Source of the DNA: an uncultured Eubacteriales bacterium
Lineage (GTDB): Bacteria > Bacillota > Clostridia > Oscillospirales > Acutalibacteraceae
Assembly: GCA_900322085.1 (NCBI GenBank)
Contig: ONYN01000122.1
Span: 460 to 64,459, forward strand
Reading direction: 5' to 3'
Length of the DNA stretch: 64,000 nt
The notes below the pieces were generated by a model. It was not told the origin of the DNA, did not search any database, and saw only the letters and a program-made list of their open reading frames with translations. The translations under genes and the position numbers were made by a program. Positions 2,154 through 19,639 of this stretch are shown here, in pieces; position 1 is the stretch's first letter, and every line of letters starts with the position of its first letter.

Positions 2154-2257
2154 ACAACCATCTCCTAATCTCAGCTATAAGGCCTTCCTCAAAATTCCCA
2201 TATTAAAAAATTGTATATTGTATGGTTAATATTGAGGATGGATATTTATTTGTTTTT

Positions 2258-5200
2258 TCAATCAACTTTAGCTGTAATAATGTATTTACTCTCGGCTTCG
2301 ACGGTGTATTTTTCTTTATTAAAGTCATCGAATATTACATCAGTCAATATATACAGTTGAGGATTATCTGAATTTACATCGGTAACATAATAAATAAAAT
2401 ATTTTCCTTGATGAGCAACTGCAAAATCATACTCATTGTTTGACAAATAGAATTTGATCCCATCGTTGATAGACTTCGCTGATGTTTTCACTTCGACAAA
2501 GAATCTGTTGTTATTCTCATCAATATATTCCATATCATAACCGAGACCTGCGCGACCCTCTGGATTGATATTTTCTTTTTTCGCATTTTCGGAAATCCAA
2601 TAGACTTTGTGGTGCTTTTTTAACAAATCATAAACATACCTCTCCCCGTTTTTACCATTTCGAACTTGAGATGCTTTTGATTCGTTATTTTTAAATCCAA
2701 CGGTATTGTTATTCGGCTTTACATTTGAAAAAGTAGCGGGTTTAATCGAAAAGTTTTTTACGACTCGAAGTTCTTTATGCGGGCTTTCAATTAATGATGT
2801 ATCGACGGTTTCATCATTATACGATGACAAATATTCTTCAAATCTTCTTCCAAGTTCTTCAAATTCAGCATAATACAGTAAGCTTGTGTTTTCGTTATTT
2901 GACAGAAAACTATCAATAAGATTAAAACCCTCTTTGATGCTTGAAGTCCATTTCTCTTTATTGGTTTTGTAGATCTTGTTTAAATCCATTTGTTTTTCCG
3001 GTTTATTTAAAGAAAATCTTTTAAAAACCACCTCCTCAGCGTTAAAATATGCTGAGTTATGAATGATGTAATCTGCATTATCAAAGTCGAAAAAACAGTC
3101 GACAAGTCGCTTTTTTTCATCAATTGACTTTGTTTTCAACTTTTTATAAATAATGCTTTTATATAATTCGCGATAATCCTGCTTTATTCTTTCTATCTCA
3201 CTTTGAAAATATGAGGTTAAATCAATTTCGCTTGAAACATTACAACTGTTATAATCATCAAAATCTATCTCTAATTTTTTGAATAATTCTATTAAGACAG
3301 AAGCGTTACCTTTCCCGGAAAAATGATCAAAATCAATATTATGAGATAATTGTCTAATATACTTTTTATCATTTTTTGTGATTTTAGAAACAGTGTTGAT
3401 AAATTCATCCTTGATATCTTCTTTAAAATCAAAATACCCTAACGCTTCTTGGACAAGGTGTTCTGATTCTGTGCTGTAGAGATACTCGAGCCGTTCTGAT
3501 TGGCTACCTCGGAAAAACAGGTTTGCGATGTCTTTTAAGGGTTTCGCTATATCCAGGCAAGAGCATATTACTTCCGCTATAGCAAAAGAAAATTTTTGAT
3601 TGTGTTTCATCAGGTTTAATGAGAAATCATAAGGGACTTTTATATATGCTTTACGCTTTTCGCAAACAATATACTCATAATCATCCAGCCGGACTTGGAA
3701 TTTACTGTTATATAAAGCTGTTATTTCAGAACACAAGCAAATATTAATTGAAAGCATTTTTCTTGCTTCGTCCCGAATATCTGTTTTGGATGACAAATCT
3801 TTTAATCTATAAATAAAGCATAAGGGGAGAAACTCCTTGAAATCTCGCCCGAATGTTGATGAATCGTTATGAAGAATCGGTTCCCCAACCGGCTCCCCAT
3901 GAATTCTCAATTCTTTAACACCGAATACTTTTTGAACCTTTGCGACACTTTCTCTTGTATCAAGGCAAATGGTATTAAAATTATTCAAGACCTGTCGGCT
4001 GATACCTTTTTCTGCTAAATAGTAGGTTTCTTTAATCGGTTTATATCCATTATTTGTATAAACCATTCCCTGCTCTAAAAAAGCTTTTCTTTCATCACAT
4101 TCAATTGTCTTTGAATCAAAGTCTTTCTCAAGCAAACATGAATACAAAGATTTTGCTATTGATGATGATTCTTCAATTTCGCACAAATGCATTAACACAC
4201 TGTAGATTTTACTGACAGGCAAATCGTCAAATTCGTTTAATCCTTCTTTAACGCCTAAATCTTTAAAAATTCGTTTGTATTCTTTTCTGACAGTGCTTTT
4301 GTTCTCGTCAATGTTTTTTATATAGTCATCTATGTCCGGAGAAACTAAGTGTGGAGCAAGATTACAATTGCTGTTAAGGATTAAACAATCGTCTATATTA
4401 TATCTCTTGTCATCAACTTGTATCCAGGGAACGGTGCAAAACAAATAATAAATATATGAGTATGGTTTCTTTATTTCATCTATTCTTTGAAATCGGCTGA
4501 TTTTATTTCCCCAAAGCACATTAACGCTACTGGTTGTTGCTTCGTGCTTTGTTGTTAACATACTCCTTAAAGAATCATCATTCCTAATCCATTCTATTAT
4601 ATCTGTGGTTCTGCTGGTTTTTAAGATTTTTTCAAGATTCTCAATTGAAGATCTTTCATATTCGACTTCTGTTATTGCCTTTGAAAAAGCGGAACTTGTT
4701 TTATAAGAATCGTTTCCGATTTTATATGGGTATTTTAGTTCTTCAACCAGTTTACATATAAAATCTCTGTCTTTGCCTCCATACCACCATGAATTATGGA
4801 TGCTGACAGATTCTTTGATTAATCGCGGCAGAGAATCTATACCAAGTTTTTCAAGGAATTCATTTATTAATTCCGTCGGTTGATTCCCAATTATTTCGTG
4901 AATATCGGCGGCAAAGTCAGCTGAGCCGACTTTACCGAGAAGATTGTCACATAAATCATAACCGTATTCTTTGCCTAAATAAAGGGTGCTCGATTTTTTG
5001 TATGTTTTTTTCCTTGTGTAAAACAATATATCAATCGTGGTGCTGTCATCTGATAAGACTATATCTCGATTGTCCCAAAGCCACTTTATAATTTTATCCC
5101 AGTAAGGCTTGGTCTTTTTTTTGCTACTGATTGTTATGTTTAATAACTCTATTATTTCATCAGAATTGTATTCTTTTATACCTAAAGCATCAAAGTATTT

Positions 5201-6916
5201 AAGTGCTTCATCTTTATCATCAAAAATATTCCGAAGAAGATATTCCCTCATAAATGAGTTAAGAAACTCAACTTTTACAAACTCCGGCAGTTTTGAAATA
5301 CTGAGTCCTTCATCTAAGAAAAAAATCGGTATGCCAAAAGGAATGAGTTCATAATCTTCATTAAAAAAGAATGCCGGCATATCATTTGGGTTGGCGTTTT
5401 TGTTAATGTTCCAAGAAAACTCATCTTTAAATGCTTTTGCTGTTCGAGCTATATGCCTTATTTTTTCTTTATTGCCTTCGATATTATCTGTTTTGACATT
5501 TTGTCTCTTAACCCAAGCCTTTACTATTTTGCAGGCATTTTCAAATGAAAATTTATAATCATCTGGGTCTACCGGAAACAAATCATAAATAAAACTGCTT
5601 AAATCTTCTTCTTCCTCAGTATCAAAATCTAAAAGAACTCTGTCAAAATCTTTACCCCTTAAGTATTTAGAAAGACCGGTATTATACCACACAGGCTGAT
5701 ATGTCATCGGTATATATTTTCCGTTGACATTTGGAAGAATCGGCTTTTTAGTTGCGCTGTCCAAAAGATAATCTTCAAATTTATAATCTTTGGATAAATC
5801 AACAGGAAGTTTGCTGTCGTTAATAAGCAGTTTGCAAATTTCATAATCAGCACGTTTTTTTTGTGCAATTTTAATAGCAATATCGACCATAAAACCAGCT
5901 GCCGCTTTTAATATGGTTTTATTTGCGTCCGAATCTTTGGCTAAATGGTTTCTGTTTTGATCAAGAGAAAAACTGGCATGCAAAAGAAACGGATATGGAA
6001 ATACAACATCCGTTTTAAAATAACTATATAAAAATTGTTCATCTTCATCTATTCCCTGATCACAATAAGCTAAGGAAATAATATATGCCTTTTCTTTCGG
6101 CTTTCCGTTATCATCAGTATCAAGATTGTCTATTGTTGTGCCGGTTTTTGTTCGGACATGCCATTCTTTTTCACTTACAATACAATTATTAACTGTTTTG
6201 GAAAGGACAACGCTATTTTTCTTTTTCTTTTTTGAATAAACAACTGAGTATTCATCCGTGTCAATAGACAATATTTCTGTTCGATTCAGGAAAAGAAGAA
6301 TATTTTCATCAAGATTTTTTATCTGATTAATAATCTCTTTGTGTTTCCCTTTTTTAACTTTTAGGGAAATAGTTGTTGTATATTCACTTGCTTTTTTTTC
6401 ACCTATCCATTCGGGAAAAGCTAATGTGGGAGCTTTTTTGTTTTTTACAGGTTCCTTATATTTTGATAATATATCGTTCATTACGGATTTAGCATAATCC
6501 TCAGAAAAACGAACATGCAAATCTCCGCTGTGAATGGTAATTTCATTTGCCCAGTTTAATACAGATCGGAAGCCGGTCCCTTTGTTGCCGATAACTTCTT
6601 TTTGCCTTTCCCTTTTTGAACTGTTGTTAGAATACATTAAAGATATTATGCCGTCTTCAGTAAAAGGAGAACCATAATTTGAGATTGTTAAAACATCTTT
6701 TTTAAACGATATTTCAACTTTTTTATACTCAGATGATGCCTTTTTATCAATTTCATCATCAGCATTTTGCAACAATTCAAGAATTTCACGTCCGTGATAT
6801 GATTGCCAGTCTTTAGTTTCACGGTCATAGTCAGTTCCGACTTGGGCGTTTTCAGTTAAATAAATCGTCTTTTTATTCTCGTTTTTCTCAAGAATAAATT
6901 TCTTCATTTTATTCAT
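2258..6916 (-). CDS. Sacsin/NO VEIN-type GHKL (HSP90-like) ATPase fused to C-terminal DUF3883 restriction-endonuclease-fold domain, 1552 aa
   Basis: The N-box and G2-box of the Bergerat fold are present (REILELLQNADDE; GNKGTGFRSVLNW). The extreme C-terminus (GERYVYDLL ... GLGYDMEYIDENNNRFFVEVKTS ... YLSNNEYDFA) matches the DUF3883 PD-(D/E)xK module. About 1100 aa in the middle are unassigned. Confidence 0.7.
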   Translation of the reverse strand: MNKMKKFILEKNENKKTIYLTENAQVGTDYDRETKDWQSYHGREILELLQNADDEIDKKASSEYKKVEISFKKDVLTISNYGSPFTEDGIISLMYSNNSSKRERQKEVIGNKGTGFRSVLNWANEITIHSGDLHVRFSEDYAKSVMNDILSKYKEPVKNKKAPTLAFPEWIGEKKASEYTTTISLKVKKGKHKEIINQIKNLDENILLFLNRTEILSIDTDEYSVVYSKKKKKNSVVLSKTVNNCIVSEKEWHVRTKTGTTIDNLDTDDNGKPKEKAYIISLAYCDQGIDEDEQFLYSYFKTDVVFPYPFLLHASFSLDQNRNHLAKDSDANKTILKAAAGFMVDIAIKIAQKKRADYEICKLLINDSKLPVDLSKDYKFEDYLLDSATKKPILPNVNGKYIPMTYQPVWYNTGLSKYLRGKDFDRVLLDFDTEEEEDLSSFIYDLFPVDPDDYKFSFENACKIVKAWVKRQNVKTDNIEGNKEKIRHIARTAKAFKDEFSWNINKNANPNDMPAFFFNEDYELIPFGIPIFFLDEGLSISKLPEFVKVEFLNSFMREYLLRNIFDDKDEALKYFDALGIKEYNSDEIIELLNITISSKKKTKPYWDKIIKWLWDNRDIVLSDDSTTIDILFYTRKKTYKKSSTLYLGKEYGYDLCDNLLGKVGSADFAADIHEIIGNQPTELINEFLEKLGIDSLPRLIKESVSIHNSWWYGGKDRDFICKLVEELKYPYKIGNDSYKTSSAFSKAITEVEYERSSIENLEKILKTSRTTDIIEWIRNDDSLRSMLTTKHEATTSSVNVLWGNKISRFQRIDEIKKPYSYIYYLFCTVPWIQVDDKRYNIDDCLILNSNCNLAPHLVSPDIDDYIKNIDENKSTVRKEYKRIFKDLGVKEGLNEFDDLPVSKIYSVLMHLCEIEESSSIAKSLYSCLLEKDFDSKTIECDERKAFLEQGMVYTNNGYKPIKETYYLAEKGISRQVLNNFNTICLDTRESVAKVQKVFGVKELRIHGEPVGEPILHNDSSTFGRDFKEFLPLCFIYRLKDLSSKTDIRDEARKMLSINICLCSEITALYNSKFQVRLDDYEYIVCEKRKAYIKVPYDFSLNLMKHNQKFSFAIAEVICSCLDIAKPLKDIANLFFRGSQSERLEYLYSTESEHLVQEALGYFDFKEDIKDEFINTVSKITKNDKKYIRQLSHNIDFDHFSGKGNASVLIELFKKLEIDFDDYNSCNVSSEIDLTSYFQSEIERIKQDYRELYKSIIYKKLKTKSIDEKKRLVDCFFDFDNADYIIHNSAYFNAEEVVFKRFSLNKPEKQMDLNKIYKTNKEKWTSSIKEGFNLIDSFLSNNENTSLLYYAEFEELGRRFEEYLSSYNDETVDTSLIESPHKELRVVKNFSIKPATFSNVKPNNNTVGFKNNESKASQVRNGKNGERYVYDLLKKHHKVYWISENAKKENINPEGRAGLGYDMEYIDENNNRFFVEVKTSAKSINDGIKFYLSNNEYDFAVAHQGKYFIYYVTDVNSDNPQLYILTDVIFDDFNKEKYTVEAESKYIITAKVD

Positions 6917-6999
6917 ATAAGAACCCCGGTAAAGTAAGTTTATAATACTTCAATTATAATATCCTGTTGCTTTGTTATTTTTCGTCGCATTTAAACAAA

Positions 7000-9900
7000 T
7001 TACGCCGAAATCCAGCCATAGCCCTGAACTGCCATGTCAATAAAGTGATTCAACAGAAGCATTGCCTTCGAGTTGAACGAAACAATATCATAGCTGTCGG
7101 GTAAATCATGGTCGAGAGAATCTTTGATTTCGCTTTCGATTTTCTTCACCGGCTGTTCATCTCTGTACCAGTCAACAACAAACAGTTCGGCTTTCTTTTC
7201 GGTCAATTTCTTATAAAGATTCTTTGCAGAAAGCTTAACTATCTGCTCTTCTGCCTTCGTGAGCTTTTTGCCGACAATAAGCAAATCGTATAGTTCCAGC
7301 TCTTCCTCGGTCAAGCCCTCGGTCTGAGCTCGGTTATCCTCTTCTTTAAGGTCATTTATGAGCTGAATCAACTGCTCATAGTAATCCTCATTCTCGCTGC
7401 CTCCGGCGTTATAGCGGTCAATAATACCCTTATATCTTTGCGAGAACTGCATTCTGGTAATATTTTTATTTATCATCTGCTCAAGCGCTCTTTCAAGAAA
7501 TGCTTTGAGGTCATCAATCTCAATTGCTTTGTATTTTGCCTGGCGTATTTCTTTTCTGAGTTCTTCAGCATCAATGCTTGAAAGATTAATAAACTTATCC
7601 TGATGAATTACAATTTCCTGCTGGTCTTCGGTTTTTGCCGCTTCAACGCTGTAATCAAGCACCGTCTGCATACGGATACGCGCTTCTTTGACTTTTTCAT
7701 CGTCAATGGTATGTTTCAGCAATCCGTGAATATATGCCAAAGGCGCAAATTTGCTGTTATACCAGTTTCTTTCAAATATCTCGGGCTTTGACGCTTCATA
7801 CAGGTTCATCAGTGTATTAAGTAGCACTTTTGCCTGAGTTTTGGTGTCATCATTTGCAACAATGGTGTTATAAACATCCCTGAGCAGATCAAGTCTGTCA
7901 AGGGTGTTTTCCTCTGCAATTATGCTGTCAATATCAATGCCGATTGATTTGAAATAAGAATCTGTTTCTTCTATTGTCGCATCAGTATATGCAATCAGCT
8001 GCGTAACATCTTTTGCAGGGAATTCATCGCTGTCATCACCTGTGGCATACTGCGACAGAGCGGTTTTCATAAATTTAAAAATGTTTACATAGTCAACAAT
8101 GATTCCGCAGGGCTTGTCAGGATATACTCTGTTTGCCCTTGCAATTGCCTGCATAAGGGTATGCCCCTTCATCGGCTTGTCAAGATAAAGGGTTGAAAGA
8201 TTAGGCACATCAAAGCCGGTCAGCCACATTGCGCAAACAAAAACCAACTGAAGCGAATCATCCGGGTCTTTGAATCTGTCTTCAATATCCTTGCCTTCAG
8301 GCGTTATTTCATTCATCTTGGCGCGGTGAGATTCAATATCAAGGCCGTATGCCGTGAATTTGTCTTTCTCCTCGGCATCTTCCGATATTATTACTGCCAT
8401 TTCTGCCTTGTTCATATAATCGAGAATGTCGGTTAACCTCTTGCGCTCATCAGCATCCGAAGTCTGATTGCGTTCTTTGATTATATCTTGCTTTTCAATC
8501 GCCCAGTAATGCTGAACTTTGTCATACATTTTAACAGCGGTATATTTATCAACAGATACAACCATGCCTTTTCCCATAAATCCGCGTCTCGGAAAGTGAT
8601 GGGCAATATCTCTGGCAATTTTATCAAGGCGGTCTTCGCGCTTGATTACCTCAAGCACTCTTGCCTGTGAGTTTTCAAGCAGACCGATTTCGTCTTCGTT
8701 AAGTTCAAGATCTTCAATAATGCTTTTAACATCATCATCGATAAAATCGTTTGTCAGCCATACTTCAGGAACCCTGCGTGAATAGAACAGCGGAACTGTT
8801 GAACCGTCTTCAATGCTCTGCGCAAAGTTATATTCCGAAACATAGTTGCCAAACCATTGATTTGTAAGGCGTTTTGCTCCGAGAAGCGGAGTTCCGGTAA
8901 ACGCTACATAGTTTGCGTTCGGCATTGAGCGGCGCATATTTTCGGCAAGGTCTTTATACTGCGTTCTGTGCGCTTCATCAACAAGAACAAATATGTCATC
9001 CCTGTCTGTCAACTTCGGGTATTTCTCGCCCTTGTCGGTTCTGAATTTATGTATCAGTGTAAATATGAACGGCTTGTTTGACTGCAGATATTCCCTGAGT
9101 TGCTTCGCGTTTTTTGGCTGGCATTCTTCTTTCGGACCGATTACATCTGTTCTTACAAAGGTCTTGTGAATCTGATTGTCAAGATCTTCTCTGTCTGTAA
9201 TAACAACAAATGTGAAGTTACCTGGTATTTTGCGCTTGACTTTGCGGGCAAACATAACCATTGAGAATGATTTGCCGCTGCCCTGTGTGTGCCAGAAAAC
9301 GCCGAGCTTGCCTTCGAGTTCTTTTCTGTTTTTGACCGATTCCATAAGATTGTTAACGCCGAGGAACTGATGGTTCTTCGCGATAATCTTTATGCTCTGA
9401 TTCTGAAAAATGATGAAGTTCTCAATATAATCAATCAGGCGGTCTCTGCGAAGCAAGCCGTCAATGAAATATTTAACAGAGCTCTCGCCCACATCATCGG
9501 CATTGCGAATCGCTTTTCTGTTGGGCTTCTCTTTTTCGCTGTCAACCTTCAGCCATTCAAAAAAGTATTCATATTTTGCATTGAATGCGCCGAGCCGGGT
9601 CTCAAGTCCGTTTGACAGCACACAAATCTGATTGAAAGCAAACAGATTCGGTATATCTTTTTTGTAATTAGTCAGGTTGTCATTATATGCGTCGCGGACT
9701 TTAACAATGCTGTTTTTAAGTTCAATAAACACAAGCGGCATACCGTTTACAAAAATAAGCACGTCGGGTCTGCGCCAATATACTTTGCCCTGAATCCACA
9801 TCTGCGAAACAGCGGTAAAAGTGTTATTCTCGGGGTTTTCAAAGTCAATGAGTTTTACAAAATCAAAATCTTCTTTTCCGTTGCGGCGAACCTTGATTTG

Positions 9901-10215
9901 TATGCTGTTTCTTATCTGATTATAGAGCTTGTAATTGACAGCGGTTATATCCCGACCTGTGAAATCTACGGTCAGGGTTTTAACAACTTCATTCAGTTTT
10001 TCATCCTCAATACCGGGATTGATTCTTCGCAGAGATTTTTTCAGAACTTCCGGCAGAACACACTGCCTTTTGTTGGTGCGGTATGTTCCGTCATCGGGAT
10101 CTTCTCTGTGAACAGGGTCGGGGTCGCAGCGAATGATATCGTAGCAAAACGGTGCGGCTTCAAGTTTTTCAAGTATCGCCTGCTCAATATCGTCTTCGGA
10201 TATGAAGTTGCTCAT
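7000..10215 (-). CDS. hsdR: Type I restriction enzyme R subunit (HsdR)
   Basis: The N-terminal nuclease motif is PDVLIFVNGMPLVFIELKN. SF2 helicase motifs are HTQGSGKS, VLVDEAHRTQY, FTGTPL and QAIARANR. ATG at 10215 has a GGAGA RBS, so the ORF-track TTG start at 10239 is probably an over-extension. Confidence 0.9.
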   Translation of the reverse strand: MSNFISEDDIEQAILEKLEAAPFCYDIIRCDPDPVHREDPDDGTYRTNKRQCVLPEVLKKSLRRINPGIEDEKLNEVVKTLTVDFTGRDITAVNYKLYNQIRNSIQIKVRRNGKEDFDFVKLIDFENPENNTFTAVSQMWIQGKVYWRRPDVLIFVNGMPLVFIELKNSIVKVRDAYNDNLTNYKKDIPNLFAFNQICVLSNGLETRLGAFNAKYEYFFEWLKVDSEKEKPNRKAIRNADDVGESSVKYFIDGLLRRDRLIDYIENFIIFQNQSIKIIAKNHQFLGVNNLMESVKNRKELEGKLGVFWHTQGSGKSFSMVMFARKVKRKIPGNFTFVVITDREDLDNQIHKTFVRTDVIGPKEECQPKNAKQLREYLQSNKPFIFTLIHKFRTDKGEKYPKLTDRDDIFVLVDEAHRTQYKDLAENMRRSMPNANYVAFTGTPLLGAKRLTNQWFGNYVSEYNFAQSIEDGSTVPLFYSRRVPEVWLTNDFIDDDVKSIIEDLELNEDEIGLLENSQARVLEVIKREDRLDKIARDIAHHFPRRGFMGKGMVVSVDKYTAVKMYDKVQHYWAIEKQDIIKERNQTSDADERKRLTDILDYMNKAEMAVIISEDAEEKDKFTAYGLDIESHRAKMNEITPEGKDIEDRFKDPDDSLQLVFVCAMWLTGFDVPNLSTLYLDKPMKGHTLMQAIARANRVYPDKPCGIIVDYVNIFKFMKTALSQYATGDDSDEFPAKDVTQLIAYTDATIEETDSYFKSIGIDIDSIIAEENTLDRLDLLRDVYNTIVANDDTKTQAKVLLNTLMNLYEASKPEIFERNWYNSKFAPLAYIHGLLKHTIDDEKVKEARIRMQTVLDYSVEAAKTEDQQEIVIHQDKFINLSSIDAEELRKEIRQAKYKAIEIDDLKAFLERALEQMINKNITRMQFSQRYKGIIDRYNAGGSENEDYYEQLIQLINDLKEEDNRAQTEGLTEEELELYDLLIVGKKLTKAEEQIVKLSAKNLYKKLTEKKAELFVVDWYRDEQPVKKIESEIKDSLDHDLPDSYDIVSFNSKAMLLLNHFIDMAVQGYGWISA

Positions 10216-10235
10216 AAGAAATTCTCCGTTTAAAC

Positions 10236-11255
10236 TCAATTTATAAATGAATCAATCAAAGCTATAAATTCATTAATCTCAGAAAAATAATTTGGATATG
10301 CTTTCTTTAACATTGAAAACGAAGTGGTTGAAACAAGCACTATATCCTCGTTTGCTTTTCTGGTTTTTTCAGCCCTGTCATATTCAAGTGTTGCCTGTTC
10401 AAGTGCATTCTTTTTAAAAGATTTAATAGACAATTGATTTGTATCTCTATCTAAAATCAACACATAATATCCTTGATCAAGTGTTTCAGAACTATCTACA
10501 TAACCTACAGCTTCTTTAATACTTTTTAACTTTCTTAAAACCTCATATTTTTCCTCATATTTAATAAACTCTTGTATAATACTCGACCGTTTAACAGCTT
10601 CAACTTTTTGACCGTTAGTTTCATATATTTCTAATAACTTTGAAACCGAGATAAAAAACTGTCTGTTATATGGATCGCCTTGACCTATCTTTAATGGATC
10701 TCCGGTAAAAGTATCCATTGTTTCAACTGCAGTTGCCCATAAGTGTTGTACATGTGTGCGGATTTGTATCTCAATAAATAGACCGTTATATTTTGGATTT
10801 CGGTCACTGTTGTATGAATAAACAATATGATAGCTTCTGTACCCATCATCCTTTGGAGTTTTTATGTAGTCATATTCTTCCTTCAGTTTGTGTCGCATTC
10901 TCGATTTCTTTAAAGACTCAACCATATTGTAGACTTCATCAGTAGTATTGAAAATAACTCTGCACCCACCAATGTCTTGCATGGTAGTTAAACTCATATT
11001 AGGGAATCTATATAGTTTTTGCGTAATTGAATACAAACGTTTTAATCTTTGGGCTACAACAGCATCCTCACCCGCTGTTTTCTTGACATGCATATAGATT
11101 ATTTGCAAAGGAAAAGCGTGGGCTGCACGCCAATTATTAATTAGAGTAAGCGCATAATCTTTTTCAGACTTTGAAGATTCATCTGAAACAAACACTTTCC
11201 CCGCTTTTTTTATTTGTGTTTTGGGAAATCTTATTTCTTCATAATTGTGAGACAT
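10236..11255 (-). CDS. RelA/SpoT-family (small alarmone synthetase / toxSAS-like) nucleotide pyrophosphokinase with unassigned C-terminal domain
   Basis: All synthetase motifs are present: QRLKRLYSITQKL, DIGGCRVIF, PKDDGYRSYHIVY and IEIQIRTHVQHLWATAVE. There is no HD hydrolase domain, and the ~140-aa C-terminal domain is unassigned. The gene has a GGAGG RBS. Its start lies inside the last 17 nt of hsdS and its stop is 20 nt before the hsdR ATG. Confidence 0.85.
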   Translation of the reverse strand: MSHNYEEIRFPKTQIKKAGKVFVSDESSKSEKDYALTLINNWRAAHAFPLQIIYMHVKKTAGEDAVVAQRLKRLYSITQKLYRFPNMSLTTMQDIGGCRVIFNTTDEVYNMVESLKKSRMRHKLKEEYDYIKTPKDDGYRSYHIVYSYNSDRNPKYNGLFIEIQIRTHVQHLWATAVETMDTFTGDPLKIGQGDPYNRQFFISVSKLLEIYETNGQKVEAVKRSSIIQEFIKYEEKYEVLRKLKSIKEAVGYVDSSETLDQGYYVLILDRDTNQLSIKSFKKNALEQATLEYDRAEKTRKANEDIVLVSTTSFSMLKKAYPNYFSEINEFIALIDSFIN

Positions 11256-12420
11256 TTTTTACCTCCAGTTTACCACTCATCAGGCGCGGCAAAAGTAAAT
11301 CTCGTTGTTTTGTTAAGTCCATATTTATTTTATATAGTGTGTTTTTTTGAATCATTATATTCCTAAGAATATCATTTGCTTTTTTCATAGTGTTATCATC
11401 AGCAACTAAAACCATTATTTTTTTCAAGTGTCTGTCTCCAAGGTGGCTTACGGTAGTCCCAGATAATGTCTGTTCCCAAAACTTAATTTGAGAATAAATT
11501 GAAAGATAGAGCCAATAATTGCAAACTTTGACACTCTTACTATCTAATTCAACTACTCGTTGATTTAAAAAGGCCCTTTTTCCACTCCATAAACACATAT
11601 GGAATATTCCATCCATACCTATTAGAATCGCATTTTCTTTTATTAAATACTTATCATCACATAACTCAGGGGTAAAAGTTTTTGTATCGTTTTTAGGGAT
11701 GTCTCTTATTCTGACAACAGCATTGAGAGTTTCATCATCTGTGAATGCGTCTGAAGAAAATGAGTATCCATAAGTAACATTAGCAACATCAAAAAGATTT
11801 GAATACTCCCATCCCTTTGGAATTCCATTCTCAAACTCTGCCGATTCATACCCGGGAAAGCGGAAACGGACAAACCACTCCTTATACATTTCTTCGGCCA
11901 TCTGCTCAAGAACCTTAATGCGTTTGTTGTTGATCTCGATAAGTGAATCATAGTTTGAAAGAACAGAAACAATGCTCTTTTGGTATTCTATAGCCGGAAA
12001 ATCCCATTTGATTTTTTTTATAAAACCAAGGTCGGCACGCTGTCTGCCGCTTGCACCAGTCATACTGTTAGCGGCAAGTTGCCTCATATGTTTCATTCTA
12101 AGCAGATAGTAAATATAATCAGTGTCCGTAACTCCATCTATGCCACGAAAAACAAACAGTTCAGTTGAGCCAAATCCTTTTTTGCCATTGGTTTTTGCTA
12201 CTGCCATCTTTCCATTTTCAAGGCAGGGGGTTATACGAGCAAACAAAACATCATTATCTTCAAATTTTGCTCCACTCTGACCGGTGTATTCAATTTCTTC
12301 ATCACTTTTAACAGGTTTAAATCCCGGATTGATCTTATCAATATCAACCAAAGGGTATTTTTCACCTTTTATAAGTTTAACAGAAGGATTACAGTTTACT
12401 TTTTCGCCAAATCTATCCAT
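11239..12420 (-). CDS. hsdS: Type I R-M specificity subunit (HsdS), two target-recognition domains
   Basis: Two variable halves are separated and followed by the conserved HsdS spacer helices (NKRIKVLEQMAEEMYKEWFVRFRFPGYE; LTKQRDLLLPRLMSGKLEV). The ATG lies 3 nt after the hsdM stop. Confidence 0.85.
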   Translation of the reverse strand: MDRFGEKVNCNPSVKLIKGEKYPLVDIDKINPGFKPVKSDEEIEYTGQSGAKFEDNDVLFARITPCLENGKMAVAKTNGKKGFGSTELFVFRGIDGVTDTDYIYYLLRMKHMRQLAANSMTGASGRQRADLGFIKKIKWDFPAIEYQKSIVSVLSNYDSLIEINNKRIKVLEQMAEEMYKEWFVRFRFPGYESAEFENGIPKGWEYSNLFDVANVTYGYSFSSDAFTDDETLNAVVRIRDIPKNDTKTFTPELCDDKYLIKENAILIGMDGIFHMCLWSGKRAFLNQRVVELDSKSVKVCNYWLYLSIYSQIKFWEQTLSGTTVSHLGDRHLKKIMVLVADDNTMKKANDILRNIMIQKNTLYKINMDLTKQRDLLLPRLMSGKLEVKNVSQL

Positions 12421-12423
12421 AGA

Positions 12424-13719
12424 TTACTCACCAAACAAAGCTTTTAAATTTTTGCCAATCTGGGTTTCAAGTTCTTTTGCTTCTGCATTCAACGCTTCAT
12501 ATTCTGTGTTCAACCCAAGCATGGTTTCTTTGAACGCTTCTGCTGTCATTCCGTCATCTTCAATAACAACGCCTACATAACGGCCTGCATTCAGCGAATA
12601 ATCCTGATCGGCAATGCTGTCTTCCTCTATAATTTCAATCGGATTACCGTCTTTATCAAGTTTAGGTTCACCGTTTTCATCAAGCTCATAAGAGATGCCG
12701 AGAGTAGCGACTTTGCATAAACCGATTACATCACGGTATTTGCCGTCAGGGAAACGCTCGGTGAGCCAGTTAATCTGCGCCTGCCAGTATGATTTGGTTT
12801 TAACTTCTTTATCATCTGATTCTTCGGGTGCTTCCGACATAGCGGCTTTATACTCTTCAATCAGCGCTTTGAGCGCTCCGGAGTCGCCTTTGTAAAGACG
12901 GGTAATAATACCGAGATTTTTAATCTGCTCGTCGCTGAATTTGCGGTGCGCTCTGTCAACCTGTGTGAACACATTTCTCGCGTCAATAAAGAGTATTTCA
13001 TCGTTTTTGTCGGTATGGGGCTTTTGTTTATCAAAGAACCAGAGTGTCGCAGGCAGTGTTACGGTTGAAAACATATTTGAGGGCAGAGTAACCATCTGAC
13101 TGATGATTCCTTCTTCGATCATCTTCTTGCGGATTTCATATTCACTCTTGCCCGCGTCGGAAGCGGAGTTTGCCATAACGAGCGCGGCTCTGCCGTTTTC
13201 ATTCAGGGCAGTTGCAAAATAGCCTATCCACAGATAGTTGGCGTTCGGCACGGTTTCTTTTTTATCCGACTTTTTCTTTGATGAATTAGAAGAATTTCTC
13301 GGCACACCGTATGTGTTGAATCTGGCATCATCAATAACCCTGTCAAATGTTACTTCATCCACATTGAACGGCGGATTTGCCATTACGTAGTCAAATGCGC
13401 CGACAGCATTATATGGGTCTGCATAAAATGAGTTTGCCTCGGTTATTTCGCCGCGGACATTATTGAGAAGAAGATTCATTTTGGCAAGTTTTACTGTATC
13501 GGGTTCTTTTTCAACACCGTAGCAGCGGAAGCTCATCTGCTCCGCTTCACTGGCATTATGATTGTGCATATATCTTGCAGACTGAACAAACATACCGCCC
13601 GAACCGCAGGCGGGGTCTATAAAGACGCTATCTTTGATACAAACAGAAAAAGCCTTCTCCGACACATAAGTGCCGAAAAAGGCGTAAAATAAGGGCCTTT
13701 GAGGTTCCACTGTGTTCAA
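12424..13719 (-). CDS. hsdM: Type I R-M methyltransferase subunit (HsdM), apparently 5'-truncated (possible pseudogene)
   Basis: SAM motif I (IDPACGSGGMF) sits at residue ~35 and catalytic NPPFN at ~106, followed by a long HsdM-type C-terminal region. The HsdM_N domain and the GEFFTP-type motif that normally precede motif I are absent. The listed start is a TTG inside a terminator hairpin loop. The frame opens only at ~13755, and the upstream residues are not HsdM-like. Confidence 0.75.
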   Translation of the reverse strand: MNTVEPQRPLFYAFFGTYVSEKAFSVCIKDSVFIDPACGSGGMFVQSARYMHNHNASEAEQMSFRCYGVEKEPDTVKLAKMNLLLNNVRGEITEANSFYADPYNAVGAFDYVMANPPFNVDEVTFDRVIDDARFNTYGVPRNSSNSSKKKSDKKETVPNANYLWIGYFATALNENGRAALVMANSASDAGKSEYEIRKKMIEEGIISQMVTLPSNMFSTVTLPATLWFFDKQKPHTDKNDEILFIDARNVFTQVDRAHRKFSDEQIKNLGIITRLYKGDSGALKALIEEYKAAMSEAPEESDDKEVKTKSYWQAQINWLTERFPDGKYRDVIGLCKVATLGISYELDENGEPKLDKDGNPIEIIEEDSIADQDYSLNAGRYVGVVIEDDGMTAEAFKETMLGLNTEYEALNAEAKELETQIGKNLKALFGE

Positions 13720-13846: not shown

Positions 13847-14410
13847 TCAATCTACAGAATCCGCGCAGTGCTGAATACGGCTGATTACCTGTTCTACTTC
13901 GTTCCAGTTTCGCACACGCGTCATGCCGTGTGCTTCTGCATCATAACTAATGTTATGAGGAGCTGTCATCAGGATTTTTTTATAGTGCCCGCCTTCCAAA
14001 TTATGAATACCGTCATCAATCAGAACATCTCCATTTATCATTTGTTTGCGGCTTGTAATTATCACATGATCCCAAGACAAAAACGGGAAGTATCTAAATA
14101 GAACTTCACTCATCTTTTCGTAGATGGATTCGTATGGCGTAGCTGTAACAATAAACACTTCGTGCCCAGCGTTAATTAGGCGCTTCAAAGCATCTGACGC
14201 GCCATCAATGGGATCGACGGTTTTCCAGAAACCGGGCTGCATAGGAATATCATAAACCTGCTCACGAGTTAATCCCGGAAAAGCGGCAGATACATCCCAA
14301 GAACGAATCTCCTCGCAGGATACGCTACACCCATATTTTTTGTTGACACCATCAACCCACGCTTTAAGAAGGTGTTCAATCGTGTCATCCATATCTACAA
14401 GAATTACCAT
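13847..14410 (-). CDS. 5'(3')-deoxyribonucleotidase (NT5C family, HAD superfamily)
   Basis: The N-terminal HAD motif is ILVDMDDTIEHLLKAWV (DxDxT). The overall ~190-aa layout matches NT5C/YorS-like enzymes (WDV...PG...FW...P..GA...L.. GHEVFIVTA ... ITS.K....GDVLIDD). The start is either ATG 14410 or GTG 14422. Confidence 0.75.
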   Translation of the reverse strand: MVILVDMDDTIEHLLKAWVDGVNKKYGCSVSCEEIRSWDVSAAFPGLTREQVYDIPMQPGFWKTVDPIDGASDALKRLINAGHEVFIVTATPYESIYEKMSEVLFRYFPFLSWDHVIITSRKQMINGDVLIDDGIHNLEGGHYKKILMTAPHNISYDAEAHGMTRVRNWNEVEQVISRIQHCADSVD

Positions 14411-14449
14411 TTTCGCTTTCACCCTCTGGCTACAGAACTACAAATACGC

Positions 14450-15304
14450 TTATTTATCCATCTTCTCAAGTTCTCCGAGGCTTACTCCGTTTTCATCTTT
14501 CCACTTGAAATTACCGCTTAAAGATGCCCCACCTATAAAACTTGCTGCAGCGGATGGACTTGAAAGAAGCACATCAGCGGTAAGCGTATATGTCTCATCA
14601 ATTAGTTCAGAATACTTTTTGCGGTCTTTTATGGCCCTTTGGGGACAAGCCTTTGTGATTTGTGGATTAAGTTTACTGCCTTTCAAAACAACAAATCCGT
14701 CGCTTGTTCTTTTCCCCACAGCTTTTGCACCGCTATATTCTAAAAACAGTAGTGGCTCCGCTTCATTCTCTGGCGTGAGTGAAACATAGGGCTCAAATAC
14801 CTTATGGCCAAGAGCCCCCATTACTATTTTTGCGTAGTCTATGAACTCTTCAAGCTCGCTTTCTGTTTCCTCCGTGATATTTCCGGGATTAGGATCGTTT
14901 CCATTTTTTACAACGTAACGATTAGCTTGAATCGCTAAATTACAAAAACGATTTTCAAGATAGCTTATCTCTGTTGGCCCGAATGAGTTATTTGAAGTAG
15001 TAAACATTATCGTCTCGGTCCAATAGTCTATTGATGGGTGGGCCTCCTGAACACGAAGCAATAATCCCTTCCCATTTTTTCTGATTCCGGCTTGTCCAAT
15101 ATACACGACAGCGTTATCTTCTTTATCCGTGCCGAAGAGGAAATAGACACCGCTTTGTTTTAAGATATCCATGTCCTTACACTTGTCAAGCGAAGTCCGA
15201 GGTATTTTATAAGCGATACCGGTCCAGTTAGCGAGGGAGCATTTTATTCTGCCGCTCGGCTCTCCATCTATTAGGAATAGTTTTAACGTCTTGCTACGTG
15301 ACAT
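14450..15304 (-). CDS. GIY-YIG nuclease family protein with C-terminal DUF4357-like domain
   Basis: The GIY-YIG core is SGVYFLFG ... VVYIGQA ... R...H, followed by YLENRF. The C-terminal third (FLEYSGAKAVGKRTSDGFVVLKGS ... FSSPSAAASFIGGASLSGNFKWK) fits DUF4357. The ATG at 15304 is preceded by GAGGAGGAAG. Confidence 0.75.
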   Translation of the reverse strand: MSRSKTLKLFLIDGEPSGRIKCSLANWTGIAYKIPRTSLDKCKDMDILKQSGVYFLFGTDKEDNAVVYIGQAGIRKNGKGLLLRVQEAHPSIDYWTETIMFTTSNNSFGPTEISYLENRFCNLAIQANRYVVKNGNDPNPGNITEETESELEEFIDYAKIVMGALGHKVFEPYVSLTPENEAEPLLFLEYSGAKAVGKRTSDGFVVLKGSKLNPQITKACPQRAIKDRKKYSELIDETYTLTADVLLSSPSAAASFIGGASLSGNFKWKDENGVSLGELEKMDK

Positions 15305-15338
15305 AATCTTCCTCCTCAACTACAGACTATCGATATTA

Positions 15339-16184
15339 TTATGAGAACAACGACAAAAAGACCCCGTTCTCCATGTCATTGATGTTATACAAGTGCTGCA
15401 TCGTATTAAAGGTTTCTTCGAGATTTCTTCTGGCACTGCGCCAACCACCACCATCTGTTACCCAGACAAATTCAACTCCTGTAACAGACCGTGCTTCTTC
15501 AGCAATCATCTTATAGCTTCTGGCTGTCTCATTAAGTTTGGAACCGCCTCCGCCATAAAAATTTGTTTCAATAACGTAAATGAGAGAATCCGTTTTAACG
15601 ACGAAATCCCACCGCTTAGTAGATGTGCCTTCAGCGGAAATCGCAGAGAGGTCAACACCCCATTTTTTCTCTATGTCAGTTATATACATTTCCTTGTAGT
15701 ATTCCACACCGGTCTGCTTAATGAATCCTTCTACAAGGTCCTCCATTTGATGGCCTCCACGGTTTTTTCTGCCGTTACTGTCAAGGCCGGTTTCAATGCC
15801 AAGCACATAATCGACGAGGTTATTGACAAGGTGGTTTGCAATCAGATCCAATAAACCGGTTTTTCTCATAAACTCCATATACTGCTCAACGGAGTAACTC
15901 ATTTTATTGAAGTCAAATAGGAATGCACCTTCTGAATCTTGCGCATATATTTCGCTCTGCCGAACAGCCAAGAGTGTGGGAATACACTTCAGTATCTCCG
16001 GATATCTTTGAAGTAAGGAAGAAAAATCTGCTTCAATGTTCTTCGAGCCGATAAGAGAGTTCATGATATTAAGCTCAATTCTTATGCTCTCAACATTGGC
16101 ATAGACTTTTTCAAAATCGACATAGTAATTGTAATTATTTATGCTCGGACGCATCTTTCCAAGCCACTCACTAAAACTCCGCAT
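15339..16184 (-). CDS. dpnB: DpnII-family type II restriction endonuclease (GATC, cuts unmethylated)
   Basis: Long colinear matches to my recollection of S. pneumoniae R.DpnII: NIMNSLIGSKNI, YPEILKCIP, NHLVNNLVDYVLGIETGLDSNGRKNRGG, KRWDFVVK, IETNFYGGGGSKLNETARSYKMIAEE and VEFVWVTDGGGW. It overlaps dpnA by 14 nt. Confidence 0.9.
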   Translation of the reverse strand: MRSFSEWLGKMRPSINNYNYYVDFEKVYANVESIRIELNIMNSLIGSKNIEADFSSLLQRYPEILKCIPTLLAVRQSEIYAQDSEGAFLFDFNKMSYSVEQYMEFMRKTGLLDLIANHLVNNLVDYVLGIETGLDSNGRKNRGGHQMEDLVEGFIKQTGVEYYKEMYITDIEKKWGVDLSAISAEGTSTKRWDFVVKTDSLIYVIETNFYGGGGSKLNETARSYKMIAEEARSVTGVEFVWVTDGGGWRSARRNLEETFNTMQHLYNINDMENGVFLSLFS

Positions 16185-16968
16185 GCAAAACCTCCTGTTG
16201 TAATCTTCTAACTGAGAGTTCGATATATTCCTCTACATTGTCAATGCCTATGTACCGTCGTCCAAGCATTTTGGCAGCAACGCCTGTAGTGGAGCTCCCG
16301 CAAAATGGATCTAAGACCAAATCTCCGGGATTGGTAGAAGCTTCAATTATTCTTTCGAGCAAATACATCGGTTTCTGAGTCGGATGTTTCCCGAACGCTT
16401 TCTCTTTTTGTGAGGTGAGCGGTCCGGTCCAAACGTCCTTCATCTGTTTGCCACCGTTTTGCTGTTTCATTAATTGATAGTTGAAAAGGTGCCTTGACTT
16501 CTTCTCATCCTTTTGAGCCCATAACACCGTCTCGGTACTATGCGTAAAGCATCTACATGCGAGGTTTGGAGGAGGATTTGTCTTTTGCCATGTGATGTTG
16601 TTTATGATCTTAAAGCCCTCTTGCTCTAAGGCCATGCCGATACTATAAATATTGTGGAGCGTTCCACTAATCCATATCGTTCCATTCGGGGTAAGGACAT
16701 TTCTGCATAGACGAATCCATTTTCTATTGAAGGCGTGCTTTTCAGAAACAGATGAAACCTTGTCCCAATCACCCTTATTAACAGAAACCATTTGACCGGC
16801 ATGGCACGTAACGCCATCATTACTCAAAAAGTATGGTGGATCGGCAAAGACCATATCGACTGACGATGGGGCTATCTTTTTGAGAACTGAAAAAGTATCA
16901 CCCAAAAAGAGCATCTCAGTTTCTGTACAATAATATGGAGAAACCCTACCTTTAATCAGTTCTCTCAT
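16171..16968 (-). CDS. dpnA: DpnA-type beta-class N6-adenine DNA methyltransferase
   Basis: Motifs include DMVFADPPYFLSNDG, VSVNKGDWDK, EKHAFNRKWIRL, NGTIWISGTLHNIYSIGMALEQEGFKIINNITWQKTNPPPN, GKHPTQKPMYLLERII and DPFCGSSTTGVAA. These are near-colinear with pneumococcal DpnA as I recall it. Confidence 0.9.
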   Translation of the reverse strand: MRELIKGRVSPYYCTETEMLFLGDTFSVLKKIAPSSVDMVFADPPYFLSNDGVTCHAGQMVSVNKGDWDKVSSVSEKHAFNRKWIRLCRNVLTPNGTIWISGTLHNIYSIGMALEQEGFKIINNITWQKTNPPPNLACRCFTHSTETVLWAQKDEKKSRHLFNYQLMKQQNGGKQMKDVWTGPLTSQKEKAFGKHPTQKPMYLLERIIEASTNPGDLVLDPFCGSSTTGVAAKMLGRRYIGIDNVEEYIELSVRRLQQEVLHAEF

Positions 16969-16981
16969 AAGACATTTCCCC

Positions 16982-17812
16982 TTAATAATTTGTGATTATT
17001 ACTTCTTTTCCAGTTCGTTTTGAGGCGTCACTGTTAATGGCTCTCCGAACATCAAAATGCTCAATCGAAAAGCCGCTATATAGTTCGTGGACAAGAGGAA
17101 CATCATGATTGCTTAACATCACCTTGGCCCCTTGCTCTGACAATCGCCTGTATAGTGCAGCTAACCGTTTGTGGTCTTCGAGCGAAAAACCTTCTTTTGT
17201 GTAATCAGTGAAATTCGCTGTCTCATCAATCGGCACATACGGAGAGTCGAAATAAACAAAATCACCGGGCTGGACATCAAAACACGCGCTTTCAAAATCT
17301 CCTTGACGAATTTCAACGTCTTTTGACCTTAAGTAAAGGCCTATGTTTCTAAGGTTTGCTGCGTCAATCGAGACACCGCCTTTTTTATTGTTGTATGGCA
17401 CGTTGAACAGCCCTTTAGAATTAACCCGATATAAGCCATTGAAACAATGCTTATTAATCCAAATCATCAGCGCAGCACATTCAGGGTCCAGCTCATGGGC
17501 CTTGATTTTTGCGTTATACGCTTCGCGGATCTTCATATATCGCTCTTTGTCGCAAGGTTCAGCATCAAGCACCTGTACCGCAGCAATAACAGCCTCTGCG
17601 TCAATCTTGAGCTGCCTATAGACATTTAAAAGCTGCTCATTGATGTCGTTAATAACCACTCGTTCGGGCTGCAATTCAAGGAGAAGCGCACCTCCGCCTA
17701 TAAAGGGCTCATAATACCTTCCGTAGTCCGTTGGCATATGCGCCTTCAGCCTATCAAGCAGTTGCGTTTTGCCACCTGCCCATTTCACAAACGGTCCTGT
17801 TTTAAATTCCAT
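16982..17812 (-). CDS. dpnM: Dam-type (alpha-class) GATC N6-adenine DNA methyltransferase, DpnM-like
   Basis: Motifs are FVKWAGGKTQLL, YYEPFIGGGALLLEL, VINDIN, NGLYRVNSKGLFNVPY, GDFVYFDSPYVP, FTDYTKEGFS and VMLSN. The ATG is preceded by AGGAGGAAACC. Confidence 0.9.
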   Translation of the reverse strand: MEFKTGPFVKWAGGKTQLLDRLKAHMPTDYGRYYEPFIGGGALLLELQPERVVINDINEQLLNVYRQLKIDAEAVIAAVQVLDAEPCDKERYMKIREAYNAKIKAHELDPECAALMIWINKHCFNGLYRVNSKGLFNVPYNNKKGGVSIDAANLRNIGLYLRSKDVEIRQGDFESACFDVQPGDFVYFDSPYVPIDETANFTDYTKEGFSLEDHKRLAALYRRLSEQGAKVMLSNHDVPLVHELYSGFSIEHFDVRRAINSDASKRTGKEVIITNY

Positions 17813-17925: not shown

Positions 17926-18597
17926 TTACCAGCCTCTATCCATCCGGCGAATGTCATAGACAAACTGCTTCTGAAAATAGAAAGCGTGGTTTTTGTTCGA
18001 CACATATCTTCCATACACCCGTGAATAAATCGGATGATAACTACCACTTGCATCACGAGCGTCTTTGCTGCGAACCTGAATGTGAGTACCATTCGATGTA
18101 TGTATAAATCCATCAGGGCTATTCTCGATATGATATCTGAGCTGCTCGCAGATGGAATAGTAATCATTACGCCAGATTTCTCTTAATTGAGCAAACTTCC
18201 GGAGTGACAAATCGATATGGATGCTCGGCAAAAACATCCAGTCCTCTGGATGGCCATCTTTGCAAACAGGAACATAGAGAATATTACTGATTTTCTCATA
18301 GAGATGGGTGTCTTCAAAAGGCCTCTCCTGTATCAGCTCGTCAATGACACTACTTATCTGTGTGATAAAGACTGTTTCTCTGGGATTCCCGGCTGCATCA
18401 CATTTGTTCGTTTTCAGTTCCCCATCATCAAAATCCAGATTTGTGCTTGAGAGATGCATCCCAAGGGACAGTTCAAGTAGTTGTCCTGTTTTGCCCTTGT
18501 TTATGATGATCATGTTCATATCGGACGGAGAGAATAGGTCTCCAAATCTAATTCCTGCAAGATTATTAAATCGCCTACATGCTTCTTCGAGTCTCAT
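17926..18597 (-). CDS. MutH-family (MutH/Sau3AI) single-domain endonuclease
   Basis: The protein is colinear with E. coli MutH as I recall it. KGKTGQLLELSLGMHLSSTNLDFDDGELKT aligns with [33 protein letters not shown], which includes the catalytic D...E-x-K. Further matches are PRETVFITQ, ILYVPV, THIQVRSKDA and HAFYFQKQF. GGAGG lies 7 nt upstream of the ATG. Confidence 0.85.
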   Translation of the reverse strand: MRLEEACRRFNNLAGIRFGDLFSPSDMNMIIINKGKTGQLLELSLGMHLSSTNLDFDDGELKTNKCDAAGNPRETVFITQISSVIDELIQERPFEDTHLYEKISNILYVPVCKDGHPEDWMFLPSIHIDLSLRKFAQLREIWRNDYYSICEQLRYHIENSPDGFIHTSNGTHIQVRSKDARDASGSYHPIYSRVYGRYVSNKNHAFYFQKQFVYDIRRMDRGW

Positions 18598-19153: not shown

Positions 19154-19639
19154 TTAGAATCCTCGGTCCGCACAAAGGCGAGCGATGTCTCTCCAACCCA
19201 TGCCTTTCATAAAGACAACAGCATCGTTGACATCTCTGTTATTAATCAGTATCTCGTATGCAGCTAAGCGCTTGATCTTCCGCCCAAGTCTTGTGTGCGG
19301 GTAGTTTTCTTCGGCTGTCATTGCCATGTACAGTGTGGTGAAGAGCTTGTCTACCCTCAGCGCGTCATTCCCGTATGTGGCGGCTATATCTGATATCATG
19401 TTTAGATTCATATCTTCAATTCTTTTCGTAGTAACATCATAAATTGCCACGAAATCGTCGTACACCCGATTGTTCCCATATGCCTTTCCTAATGATTTCA
19501 GATCATTAAAGTAATCTTTATCCAAGGGTGGCTGTCTACTACCAGCTGGATCTGTCATATACACACACCAGTTGTCAATTTTACCCCTGTCATACTCTAA
19601 AAACGAACCATCCGAGAACCGCTTTATTAGTTGACCCAT
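19154..19639 (-). CDS. Hypothetical protein (161 aa), first gene of the MutH-containing operon
   Basis: The ATG has a GAAGGA RBS. The gene lies 11 nt upstream of the next cistron. I recognise no motif. Confidence 0.6.
   Translation of the reverse strand: MGQLIKRFSDGSFLEYDRGKIDNWCVYMTDPAGSRQPPLDKDYFNDLKSLGKAYGNNRVYDDFVAIYDVTTKRIEDMNLNMISDIAATYGNDALRVDKLFTTLYMAMTAEENYPHTRLGRKIKRLAAYEILINNRDVNDAVVFMKGMGWRDIARLCADRGF

Follow-up and report, generated by a model that had tools for sequence, protein, structure and literature searches.

The window analyzed here is a 64,000-nucleotide (nt) stretch from an uncultured Eubacteriales bacterium (GenBank assembly GCA_900322085.1, contig ONYN01000122.1, positions 460 to 64,459). 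It carries a RelA/SpoT homologue (RSH) gene at 10236..11255 on the minus strand, between hsdS and hsdR of a type I restriction-modification (R-M) operon. On sequence and modeled fold, the product, 339 amino acids (aa) followed by a stop codon, is a member of the characterized CapRel family, a predicted single-chain fused toxin-antitoxin protein without a hydrolase domain. The best explanation, which we consider probable, is an autonomous CapRel-family defense protein carried as a mobile cassette in the type I operon and acting as a second, independent layer of defense. The gene is most likely mobile cargo in the restriction operon and not a restriction-dependent guard, the role in which the original prediction had cast it by comparison with the anticodon nuclease PrrC.

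Pfam returned PF04607 (RelA_SpoT) as the sole match in the open reading frame (ORF) (aa 69-175, E=7e-23), and no HD domain was found. The full set of synthetase motifs was present, as originally read from the sequence, namely, RLKRLxSIxxKL (R70, K72, S76, and K80), DIGGCR (D94, G96, G97, and R99), GYRSYH (Y139, R140, and H143), and EIQIRT (E162, Q164, R166, and T167), and all these named residues were invariant in an alignment of 82 homologues. The core of this toxSYNTH pyrophosphokinase domain lies at 10731..11051 on the minus strand and by residue mapping contains R70 and R99 for ATP coordination, D94, Y139 of the G-loop, and E162. In a phmmer search of all Protein Data Bank (PDB) chains, CapRel SJ46 (7ZTB/9ERV) aligned at E=5.7e-42 over query aa 7-334 and chain residues 12-366, and RelP and RelQ aligned over aa 67-181 only (about 1e-13). 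A tblastn search of phage records returned, at 31% identity with 98% coverage, the RelA/SpoT protein of Salmonella phage SJ46, which is CapRel SJ46; identity in the catalytic domain was 38%. Among all PDB chains and all phage records, CapRel SJ46 was the closest protein by far. An AF2 model built from the 82 homologues (predicted local distance difference test 88.6, predicted template modeling score 0.84) gave as best Foldseek match 7ZTB, annotated as Salmonella tRNA pyrophosphokinase CapRel, with E=3e-21 and a template modeling (TM) score of 0.70 over 349 columns. The entry 9ERV stood next to it, and the matches to RelP/RelQ were limited to the N-terminal domain (TM score on the query 0.38). 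The root-mean-square deviation was large, about 10 Å, as expected if the model represents the closed state and the crystal the open state (PMC9712102).

The C-terminal half (aa 186-339; 10239..10700, minus strand) aligned with CapRel SJ46 residues ~205-366 and was delimited additionally by the secondary structure of the model and by conservation. In the model it is composed of linker helices, a pseudo-zinc-finger-domain (pseudo-ZFD)-like beta-sheet region at about aa 251-300, which is the most variable part, and anchor helices. Its last ~140 aa had been described as an unassigned domain, which no longer holds: phmmer and Foldseek both relate this region to the pseudo-ZFD/anchor antitoxin and sensor domain of CapRel, which would make the protein a fused, CapRel-type toxic small alarmone synthetase (toxSAS). 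The YXXY neutralization motif Y320-P-N-Y323, within AYPNYF, was located at 10287..10298 on the minus strand and aligned with Y352-P-N-Y355 of CapRel SJ46; Y320, P321, Y323, and F324 were invariant in the 82 homologues. In CapRel SJ46, the functional residues are R79 and R116 for ATP coordination, Y155 of the G-loop, Y352 and Y355 of YXXY, and the scaffold residues A77, V338, L339, A341, and A351, and the substitutions Y352A and Y355A render the protein constitutively toxic (PMC9712102). By the phmmer alignment, A77, R79, R116, and Y155 correspond to A68, R70, R99, and Y139 of the window protein, and V338, L339, A351, Y352, and Y355 correspond to V306, L307, A319, Y320, and Y323. The sole difference among the functional residues compared is A341, which is S309 in the window protein, and most of the mapped residues are invariant or nearly so in the 82 homologues. 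Mean column conservation was 0.49-0.51 for aa 186-300 (linker and sensor) and 0.72-0.73 for the catalytic core and anchor; the low value of the former agrees with the reported behavior of the CapRel sensor domain (PMC9712102, PMC13423816).

A housekeeping small alarmone synthetase of the RelP/RelQ type, lying in the operon by chance, would also contain a PF04607 domain, and the NCBIfam YjbM model (NF053588) did match weakly. The match, however, reached 69.9 bits against a cutoff of 320, far too low for this equivalog, so a housekeeping enzyme is excluded. RelP and RelQ (PDB 5DED, 6EX0) share the catalytic fold and motifs of aa ~67-181 in a weak, partial similarity, but they are single-domain proteins of ~200-230 aa without an antitoxin domain or defense context, whereas the window protein has a second domain homologous to the CapRel antitoxin and its gene lies in a defense island. 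We regard this explanation as having practically no chance of being correct. The earlier assignment to the toxic rather than the housekeeping type, and to single-chain fused systems such as CapRel SJ46, was thus upheld by the full-length matches, and the structural comparison that had been proposed for the C-terminal residues yielded a full-length Foldseek match to 7ZTB.

By homology with CapRel SJ46, the N-terminal toxSYNTH domain would act as a pyrophosphokinase that, most likely, moves pyrophosphate from ATP onto the tRNA 3' CCA terminus, leading to a shutdown of translation and to abortive infection. In the uninfected cell, the C-terminal domain is predicted to fold back so that YXXY (Y320/Y323) is placed between R70 and R99 and the ATP site is blocked. 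A phage protein bound to the variable region of pseudo-ZFD and anchor would keep the enzyme in an open, active state. We infer that tRNA is the substrate, that a phage protein acts as the trigger, and that the enzyme is independent of the HsdMSR complex. An alternative with the same fused architecture is that the toxin acts on nucleotides rather than tRNA, producing either (p)ppApp, with ATP depletion as by FaRel or Tas1, or (p)ppGpp. In its favor, the set of RSH synthetase motifs is complete, both kinds of toxSAS enzyme are known (PMC9712102), and the catalytic domain shares only 38% identity with that of CapRel SJ46. On the other hand, the closest characterized relative is, by a wide margin, a tRNA pyrophosphokinase, CapRel is described as a translation-inhibiting subfamily, and the PDB matches at E<=1 included no known (p)ppApp synthetase. 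A nucleotide-directed toxin is therefore judged unlikely.

The RSH gene is an integral same-strand cistron of the type I operon within a defense island. The upstream hsdS (11239..12420, minus strand; 393 aa) encodes two target-recognition domains (two Pfam Methylase_S matches; PADLOC Specificity_I, E=2e-57), and its TGA stop codon at 11239..11241 creates a 17-nt overlap with the start of the RSH gene. A Shine-Dalgarno sequence GGAGG (11262..11266, minus strand) was read within the hsdS 3' end, 6 nt ahead of the RSH start codon (ATG, 11255). The RSH stop codon occupies 10236..10238 and is separated from the hsdR ATG at 10215 by a 20-nt gap that contains a GGAGA site. The hsdR gene (7000..10215, minus strand) encodes 1071 aa with Pfam domains HSDR_N, SWI2_SNF2, T1R_D3-like, and T1RH-like_C (PADLOC REase_I, E=1e-170), and the same length was called in the identical operon of contig L081. 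These junctions, and the placement as an operon cistron flanked by hsdS and hsdR, agree with the original reading of the sequence. The absence of an antitoxin-sized ORF adjoining the RSH gene was likewise seen again when the neighboring ORFs were inspected, and an Rfam search of the operon returned no RNA.

We determined how frequent this arrangement is by scanning 185,579 species, each represented by one genome; 470 genomes had a relative, and the best 80 of these loci were analyzed. Hsd labels were assigned by jackhmmer seeded with the window's own subunits, and the immediate neighbors were then verified with Pfam; the two sets of counts agree. Among species-level relatives, the immediate upstream neighbor was HsdS in 13/77 and HsdM in 2/77, and the immediate downstream neighbor was HsdR in 12/74, so the statistical association with type I operons that had been anticipated is present and recurrent. 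A random gene would follow hsdS with an estimated chance of the order of 1 in thousands; set against 13/77, the enrichment in type I operons is very large. Both flanks reached at least 3 kb in 47 loci; 15 of these (32%) were in or beside a type I operon, seven with the exact order hsdS-RSH-hsdR, four embedded together with extra cargo, and four adjacent. A relative with 71% identity, P0024, found in many gut metagenomes, has the order HTH (helix-turn-helix)-hsdM-hsdS-RSH-hsdR, followed by Mob_Pre and resolvase genes. In P0047 (61% identity), hsdM-hsdS is followed by five unknown genes, RSH-hsdR, and then DUF4357 and Kiwa genes.

Other cargo genes occur at the same hsdS-hsdR junction in relatives. 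Between hsdS and the CapRel gene of locus L093 (L093:3207-5853), five ORFs without Pfam hits were observed, and between the CapRel gene and hsdR of locus L005 (L005:9104-11040), two ORFs of 282 and 350 aa; both sets are possible additional embedded defense genes. The toxin-antitoxin system DarTG2 has been described at the same hsdS-hsdR position in enteropathogenic Escherichia coli (EPEC) (PMC12255303). We propose that the CapRel-type gene is an autonomous, horizontally mobile cassette that would have been inserted at the variable hsdS-hsdR junction, would be cotranscribed and translationally coupled, and would be carried and expressed along with first-line restriction as a second, independent layer.

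Recurrent but nonobligate embedding and foreign base composition were observed directly. In a neighbor-joining tree, embedded and nonembedded members were interspersed in several subclades, and no embedded member fell in the more distant clade, which is mostly non-Firmicute. The embedded copy of locus L014 was 80% identical (78-80% in the sensor region) to the copies of loci L019 and L036 (Evtepia gabavorous), whose neighbors encode a FAD (flavin adenine dinucleotide) oxidase, a phosphatase/GNAT protein, a SRAP peptidase, and an integrase; R-M genes were absent there. An obligate association with type I systems was ruled out by these non-R-M contexts and by the Pfam neighbor counts. Identities of RSH and HsdR were decoupled, with 67% for RSH and 34% for HsdR between the window and locus L003. 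Compared with the window HsdR, the HsdR proteins of embedded loci were about 73% identical in L001, L002, and L005 and 21-37% identical outside this closest clade, where their C-terminal domains also differed. The pairwise identities of RSH and HsdR correlated with a Spearman coefficient of 0.40, which mirrors linkage in close clades only and does not discriminate between the models. The GC content at third codon positions (GC3) of the RSH gene was far under that of hsdM and hsdR, and near that of hsdS, in all 20 type-I-linked loci (differences 0.2-0.45), a signature of a horizontally exchanged cassette. In the window, the values were 0.26 for RSH and 0.45 and 0.46 for hsdM and hsdR, and in GC-rich hosts they were 0.44 versus 0.85 (L050) and 0.41 versus 0.83-0.87 (L059). 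As a separate observation, the CapRel gene and hsdS (window 10236..12420; also in L050, L057, and L059) are consistently much richer in AT at third codon positions than hsdM and hsdR beside them, as if hsdS with its cargo had been swapped as one block between conserved arms formed by hsdM and hsdR.

The competing explanation, a PrrC-like guard, holds that HsdMSR keeps the enzyme latent, or that the enzyme senses Ocr/ArdA/Stp-like proteins, alone or complex bound, and that it fires when restriction is disabled. In its favor, embedding on the same strand between hsdS and hsdR is strong and recurrent, the junctions are tight or overlapping, and all well-resolved members of the window's own clade are embedded; PrrC itself provides a precedent, and embedded backup systems are discussed by Payne et al. 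(bioRxiv 10.1101/2024.01.29.577857). CapRel(Ebc) moreover uses a host protein as cosensor: it requires FtsZ together with the phage protein T7 Gp0.4, and the trigger gene 0.4 adjoins ocr (PMC13423816). The comparative data, however, gave no support to a latency imposed by the R-M complex. About 68% of the well-flanked relatives, and about two thirds or more of the close relatives, are found outside type I loci, in contrast to PrrC, which is reportedly embedded in type I R-M operons almost without exception (Payne et al., bioRxiv 10.1101/2024.01.29.577857). Copies with 80% identity and an equally conserved sensor region occur in non-R-M contexts, embedding spans type I families whose HsdR proteins are 21-37% identical, and the YXXY motif of in-cis autoinhibition is conserved, so that latency would need no partner. 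CapRel homologues defend on their own in E. coli, and CapRel SJ46 is autoinhibited in cis (PMC9712102); its gene lies outside any R-M operon. A guard function of this kind is accordingly judged improbable, although these data leave room for a functional synergy.

A related variant would treat the type-I-embedded CapRel proteins as a specialized backup, in which the variable sensor recognizes Ocr/ArdA/Stp-like proteins, possibly only when these are bound to HsdMSR. Inhibition of restriction would then switch on tRNA pyrophosphorylation, in parallel to CapRel(Ebc) with FtsZ. We give this variant a low probability as well; if embedded copies did sense anti-restriction proteins, they would constitute a second, independent case of the PrrC guard principle, with a different enzyme.

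Several points weigh against the autonomous, mobile CapRel-type cassette that we favor. In the window's own clade, every well-resolved locus (among them L001, L002, L003, L005, P0024, and the identical protein in L081) has the gene inside the type I operon, nearly always directly before hsdR, and a functional link with restriction could explain the type I enrichment as well as an insertion hotspot does. With only 31% identity to CapRel SJ46, a tRNA rather than a nucleotide substrate is an extrapolation, and the FtsZ requirement of CapRel(Ebc) means that host cofactors are possible in the CapRel family. Placement in the CapRel subfamily, as opposed to FaRel, FaRel2, PhRel, or PhRel2, follows best sequence hits and not a full RSH phylogeny.

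The state of hsdM in this genome had gone unmentioned in the original prediction, and the gene lacks its first ~200 codons. Of hsdM, the 3' two thirds are retained at 12424..13617 on the minus strand, from methyltransferase motif I (DPACGSGG) to the end, and the HsdM_N domain is missing together with ~200 N-terminal codons, as established with PADLOC, an orthologue, and contig L081. A foreign 5' leader of 32 unrelated codons is fused to it at 13618..13719 (minus strand), as shown by breakpoint mapping. The ORF (12424..13719) matched the PADLOC MTase_I profile from position 198/653 only, an 83%-identical orthologue aligned from its aa 204 only, and an N-terminal hsdM fragment was absent everywhere in the 64-kb window. 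Over 11,382 nt, window positions 13617..2236 are 100% identical to contig L081 of another metagenome, which has an intact hsdM of 602 aa with HsdM_N; the breakpoint lies at 13617/13618. Upstream of 13617, the window matches contigs L099 and L100, where the same NT5C gene and leader run into a different 296-aa N6_Mtase/MmeI_Mtase ORF (L099:7804-8388 and L100:4899-6059). The crossover lies inside the motif I codons, at which the parental sequences share 21/23 nt with no exact run longer than 11 nt; this argues for real recombination and against k-mer misassembly, and an assembly chimera as the cause of the truncation is unlikely. Two different methyltransferase genes are thus seen joined to the same left flank at exactly the motif I codons (13595..13719, minus strand; L081:1-1163), an arrangement suggesting that paralogous methyltransferases recombined at this conserved motif.

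The type I system of this genome is probably nonfunctional, and the operon promoter may have been lost. It is possible, although we consider it less probable than not, that the whole cassette is a silent relic here, in which the 5' third of hsdM and the promoter region were lost and hsdS, RSH, and hsdR are unexpressed and decaying. Besides the breakpoint relative to the intact version in L081, a terminator-like hairpin of 14 base pairs followed by a T-run at 13652..13683, directly upstream of the truncated hsdM and overlapping the foreign leader, fits such a state, and the promoter signal was not above chance. Yet hsdS, RSH, and hsdR are all undamaged and match their counterparts in the intact operon at 100% identity, so any silencing would be recent. 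An internal promoter is also conceivable, since the promoter scan of the truncated operon (22 sites versus 20 expected) was without power. The silent relic is compatible with the autonomous mobile cassette as the best explanation for the family as a whole.

The loss of HsdM_N and ~200 codons next to an intact RSH ORF that does not differ from its counterpart in the intact operon also tells against a guard, but weakly, because the operon promoter may have been lost too. The intact RSH gene beside a truncated hsdM is weakly consistent with a toxin that stays silent without the R-M complex; equally, the cassette may no longer be expressed. At the end of contig L081 (L081:1-120), upstream of the intact hsdM, a ~27-nt sequence, AATTCACGCACTCT..GGAG.GCGAC, occurs in two imperfect copies ~67 nt apart, which may be the degenerate end of a CRISPR (clustered regularly interspaced short palindromic repeats) array; this repeat was sought in the window and was absent.

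The protein also matched the PADLOC candidate PDC-S33 (profile PDLC04999) over its full length (E=9.4e-115, aa 5-338 versus profile positions 3-342/349), and CapRel SJ46 fits the same profile, likewise full length (E=7e-87). PADLOC defined its PDC candidates by the embedding of genes in BREX, DISARM, or type I R-M loci (Payne et al., bioRxiv 10.1101/2024.01.29.577857), so the embedding link of this protein family is already in a public database. Literature searches for PDC-S33, for toxSAS with hsdR, and for CapRel embedded or with hsdS retrieved no description or test of the arrangement. The statement that no RSH enzyme had been characterized in a type I operon therefore stands for the searchable literature, but the family itself was already catalogued. 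Nothing about the locus is categorically new, and the hsdS-hsdR position is an already recognized hotspot for embedded defense genes. For now, the value of the case lies chiefly in the annotation and in one more instance of the known "guilt-by-embedding" pattern.

In comparison to CapRel(SJ46) and CapRel(Ebc) (PMC9712102; PDB 7ZTB, 9ERV), the window protein has the same single-ORF layout of N-terminal toxSYNTH and C-terminal pseudo-ZFD/anchor antitoxin. It shares with CapRel(SJ46) the equivalents of R79, R116, and Y155, the YXXY motif, a variable sensor, and the PDC-S33 profile, with full-length sequence and fold matches. It differs in its identity (31%), length (339 versus 373 aa), origin (uncultured gut/rumen Clostridia versus an enterobacterial P1-like prophage), and position, an internal cistron of a type I R-M operon versus a stand-alone gene. 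Like PrrC of the EcoprrI hsdMSR operon, it is encoded on the same strand inside a type I operon and is, in our case by prediction, an abortive-infection effector that acts on tRNA. Unlike PrrC, it does not have the fold of an ABC-ATPase with a nuclease, about a quarter to a third of its family members are embedded rather than nearly all, and it carries its own autoinhibitory domain, whereas the latency of PrrC depends on the R-M complex. Like DarTG2 in EPEC, it is a (predicted) toxin-antitoxin defense module at the hsdS-hsdR junction, co-oriented with the operon, but in contrast to a two-gene system at this junction it is one fused protein with a different enzyme chemistry. No RptR-like regulator was seen in the window; a helix-turn-helix gene precedes the operon of the relative P0024.

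The surrounding defense island comprises, by PADLOC, Tiamat, a PDC-S14/DUF4357 gene, a DpnII-type R-M system, and Hachiman. Directly downstream of hsdR lies a gene for a 1552-aa protein (2258..6916, minus strand) that matches the PADLOC profile of Tiamat TmtA over the full length (E=4.7e-269) and contains a NOV_C domain; the gene's GC content of 0.325 is as low as that of the CapRel gene. Between the truncated hsdM and the DpnII-type system are genes for an NT5C-family 5'-deoxynucleotidase (13847..14422, minus strand) and a DUF4357 protein that matches the PADLOC candidate PDC-S14 (14450..15319, minus strand); a DUF4357 gene follows hsdR also in the related locus L093. The DpnII-type system, on the minus strand, consists of DpnII (15339..16184), an N6_N4_Mtase (16171..16968), and a D12 methyltransferase (16982..17812). 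It is followed by a MutH-like protein gene (17926..18597, minus strand), an unassigned 198-aa ORF, a DUF7004 protein gene (19154..19639), and a Hachiman-like pair on the minus strand of a DEAD-box helicase (19717..22323) and HamA (22320..23789). The sole Rfam match of the window at the gathering threshold was the DUF2800 RNA motif RF02960 (24271..24432, plus strand; 132.6 bits). At the island edge, a 324-aa ORF (1179..2153, minus strand) begins with a domain like the TnsA endonuclease N-terminal domain, which hints at the boundary of a Tn7-like or other mobile element.

CapRel is among the best-understood bacterial sensors of phage proteins, and to our knowledge the examples studied so far are all enterobacterial and encoded by stand-alone genes. 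Among close relatives from Firmicutes of the gut and rumen and from a few other phyla, between a quarter and a third lie inside type I operons, usually after hsdS and before hsdR, and form an AT-rich cassette. The untested PADLOC candidate PDC-S33 is now tied to the experimentally validated CapRel family. The recurrent CapRel-in-type-I loci represent testable, natural two-layer operons of restriction plus abortive infection and an entry point for the study of layered defense.

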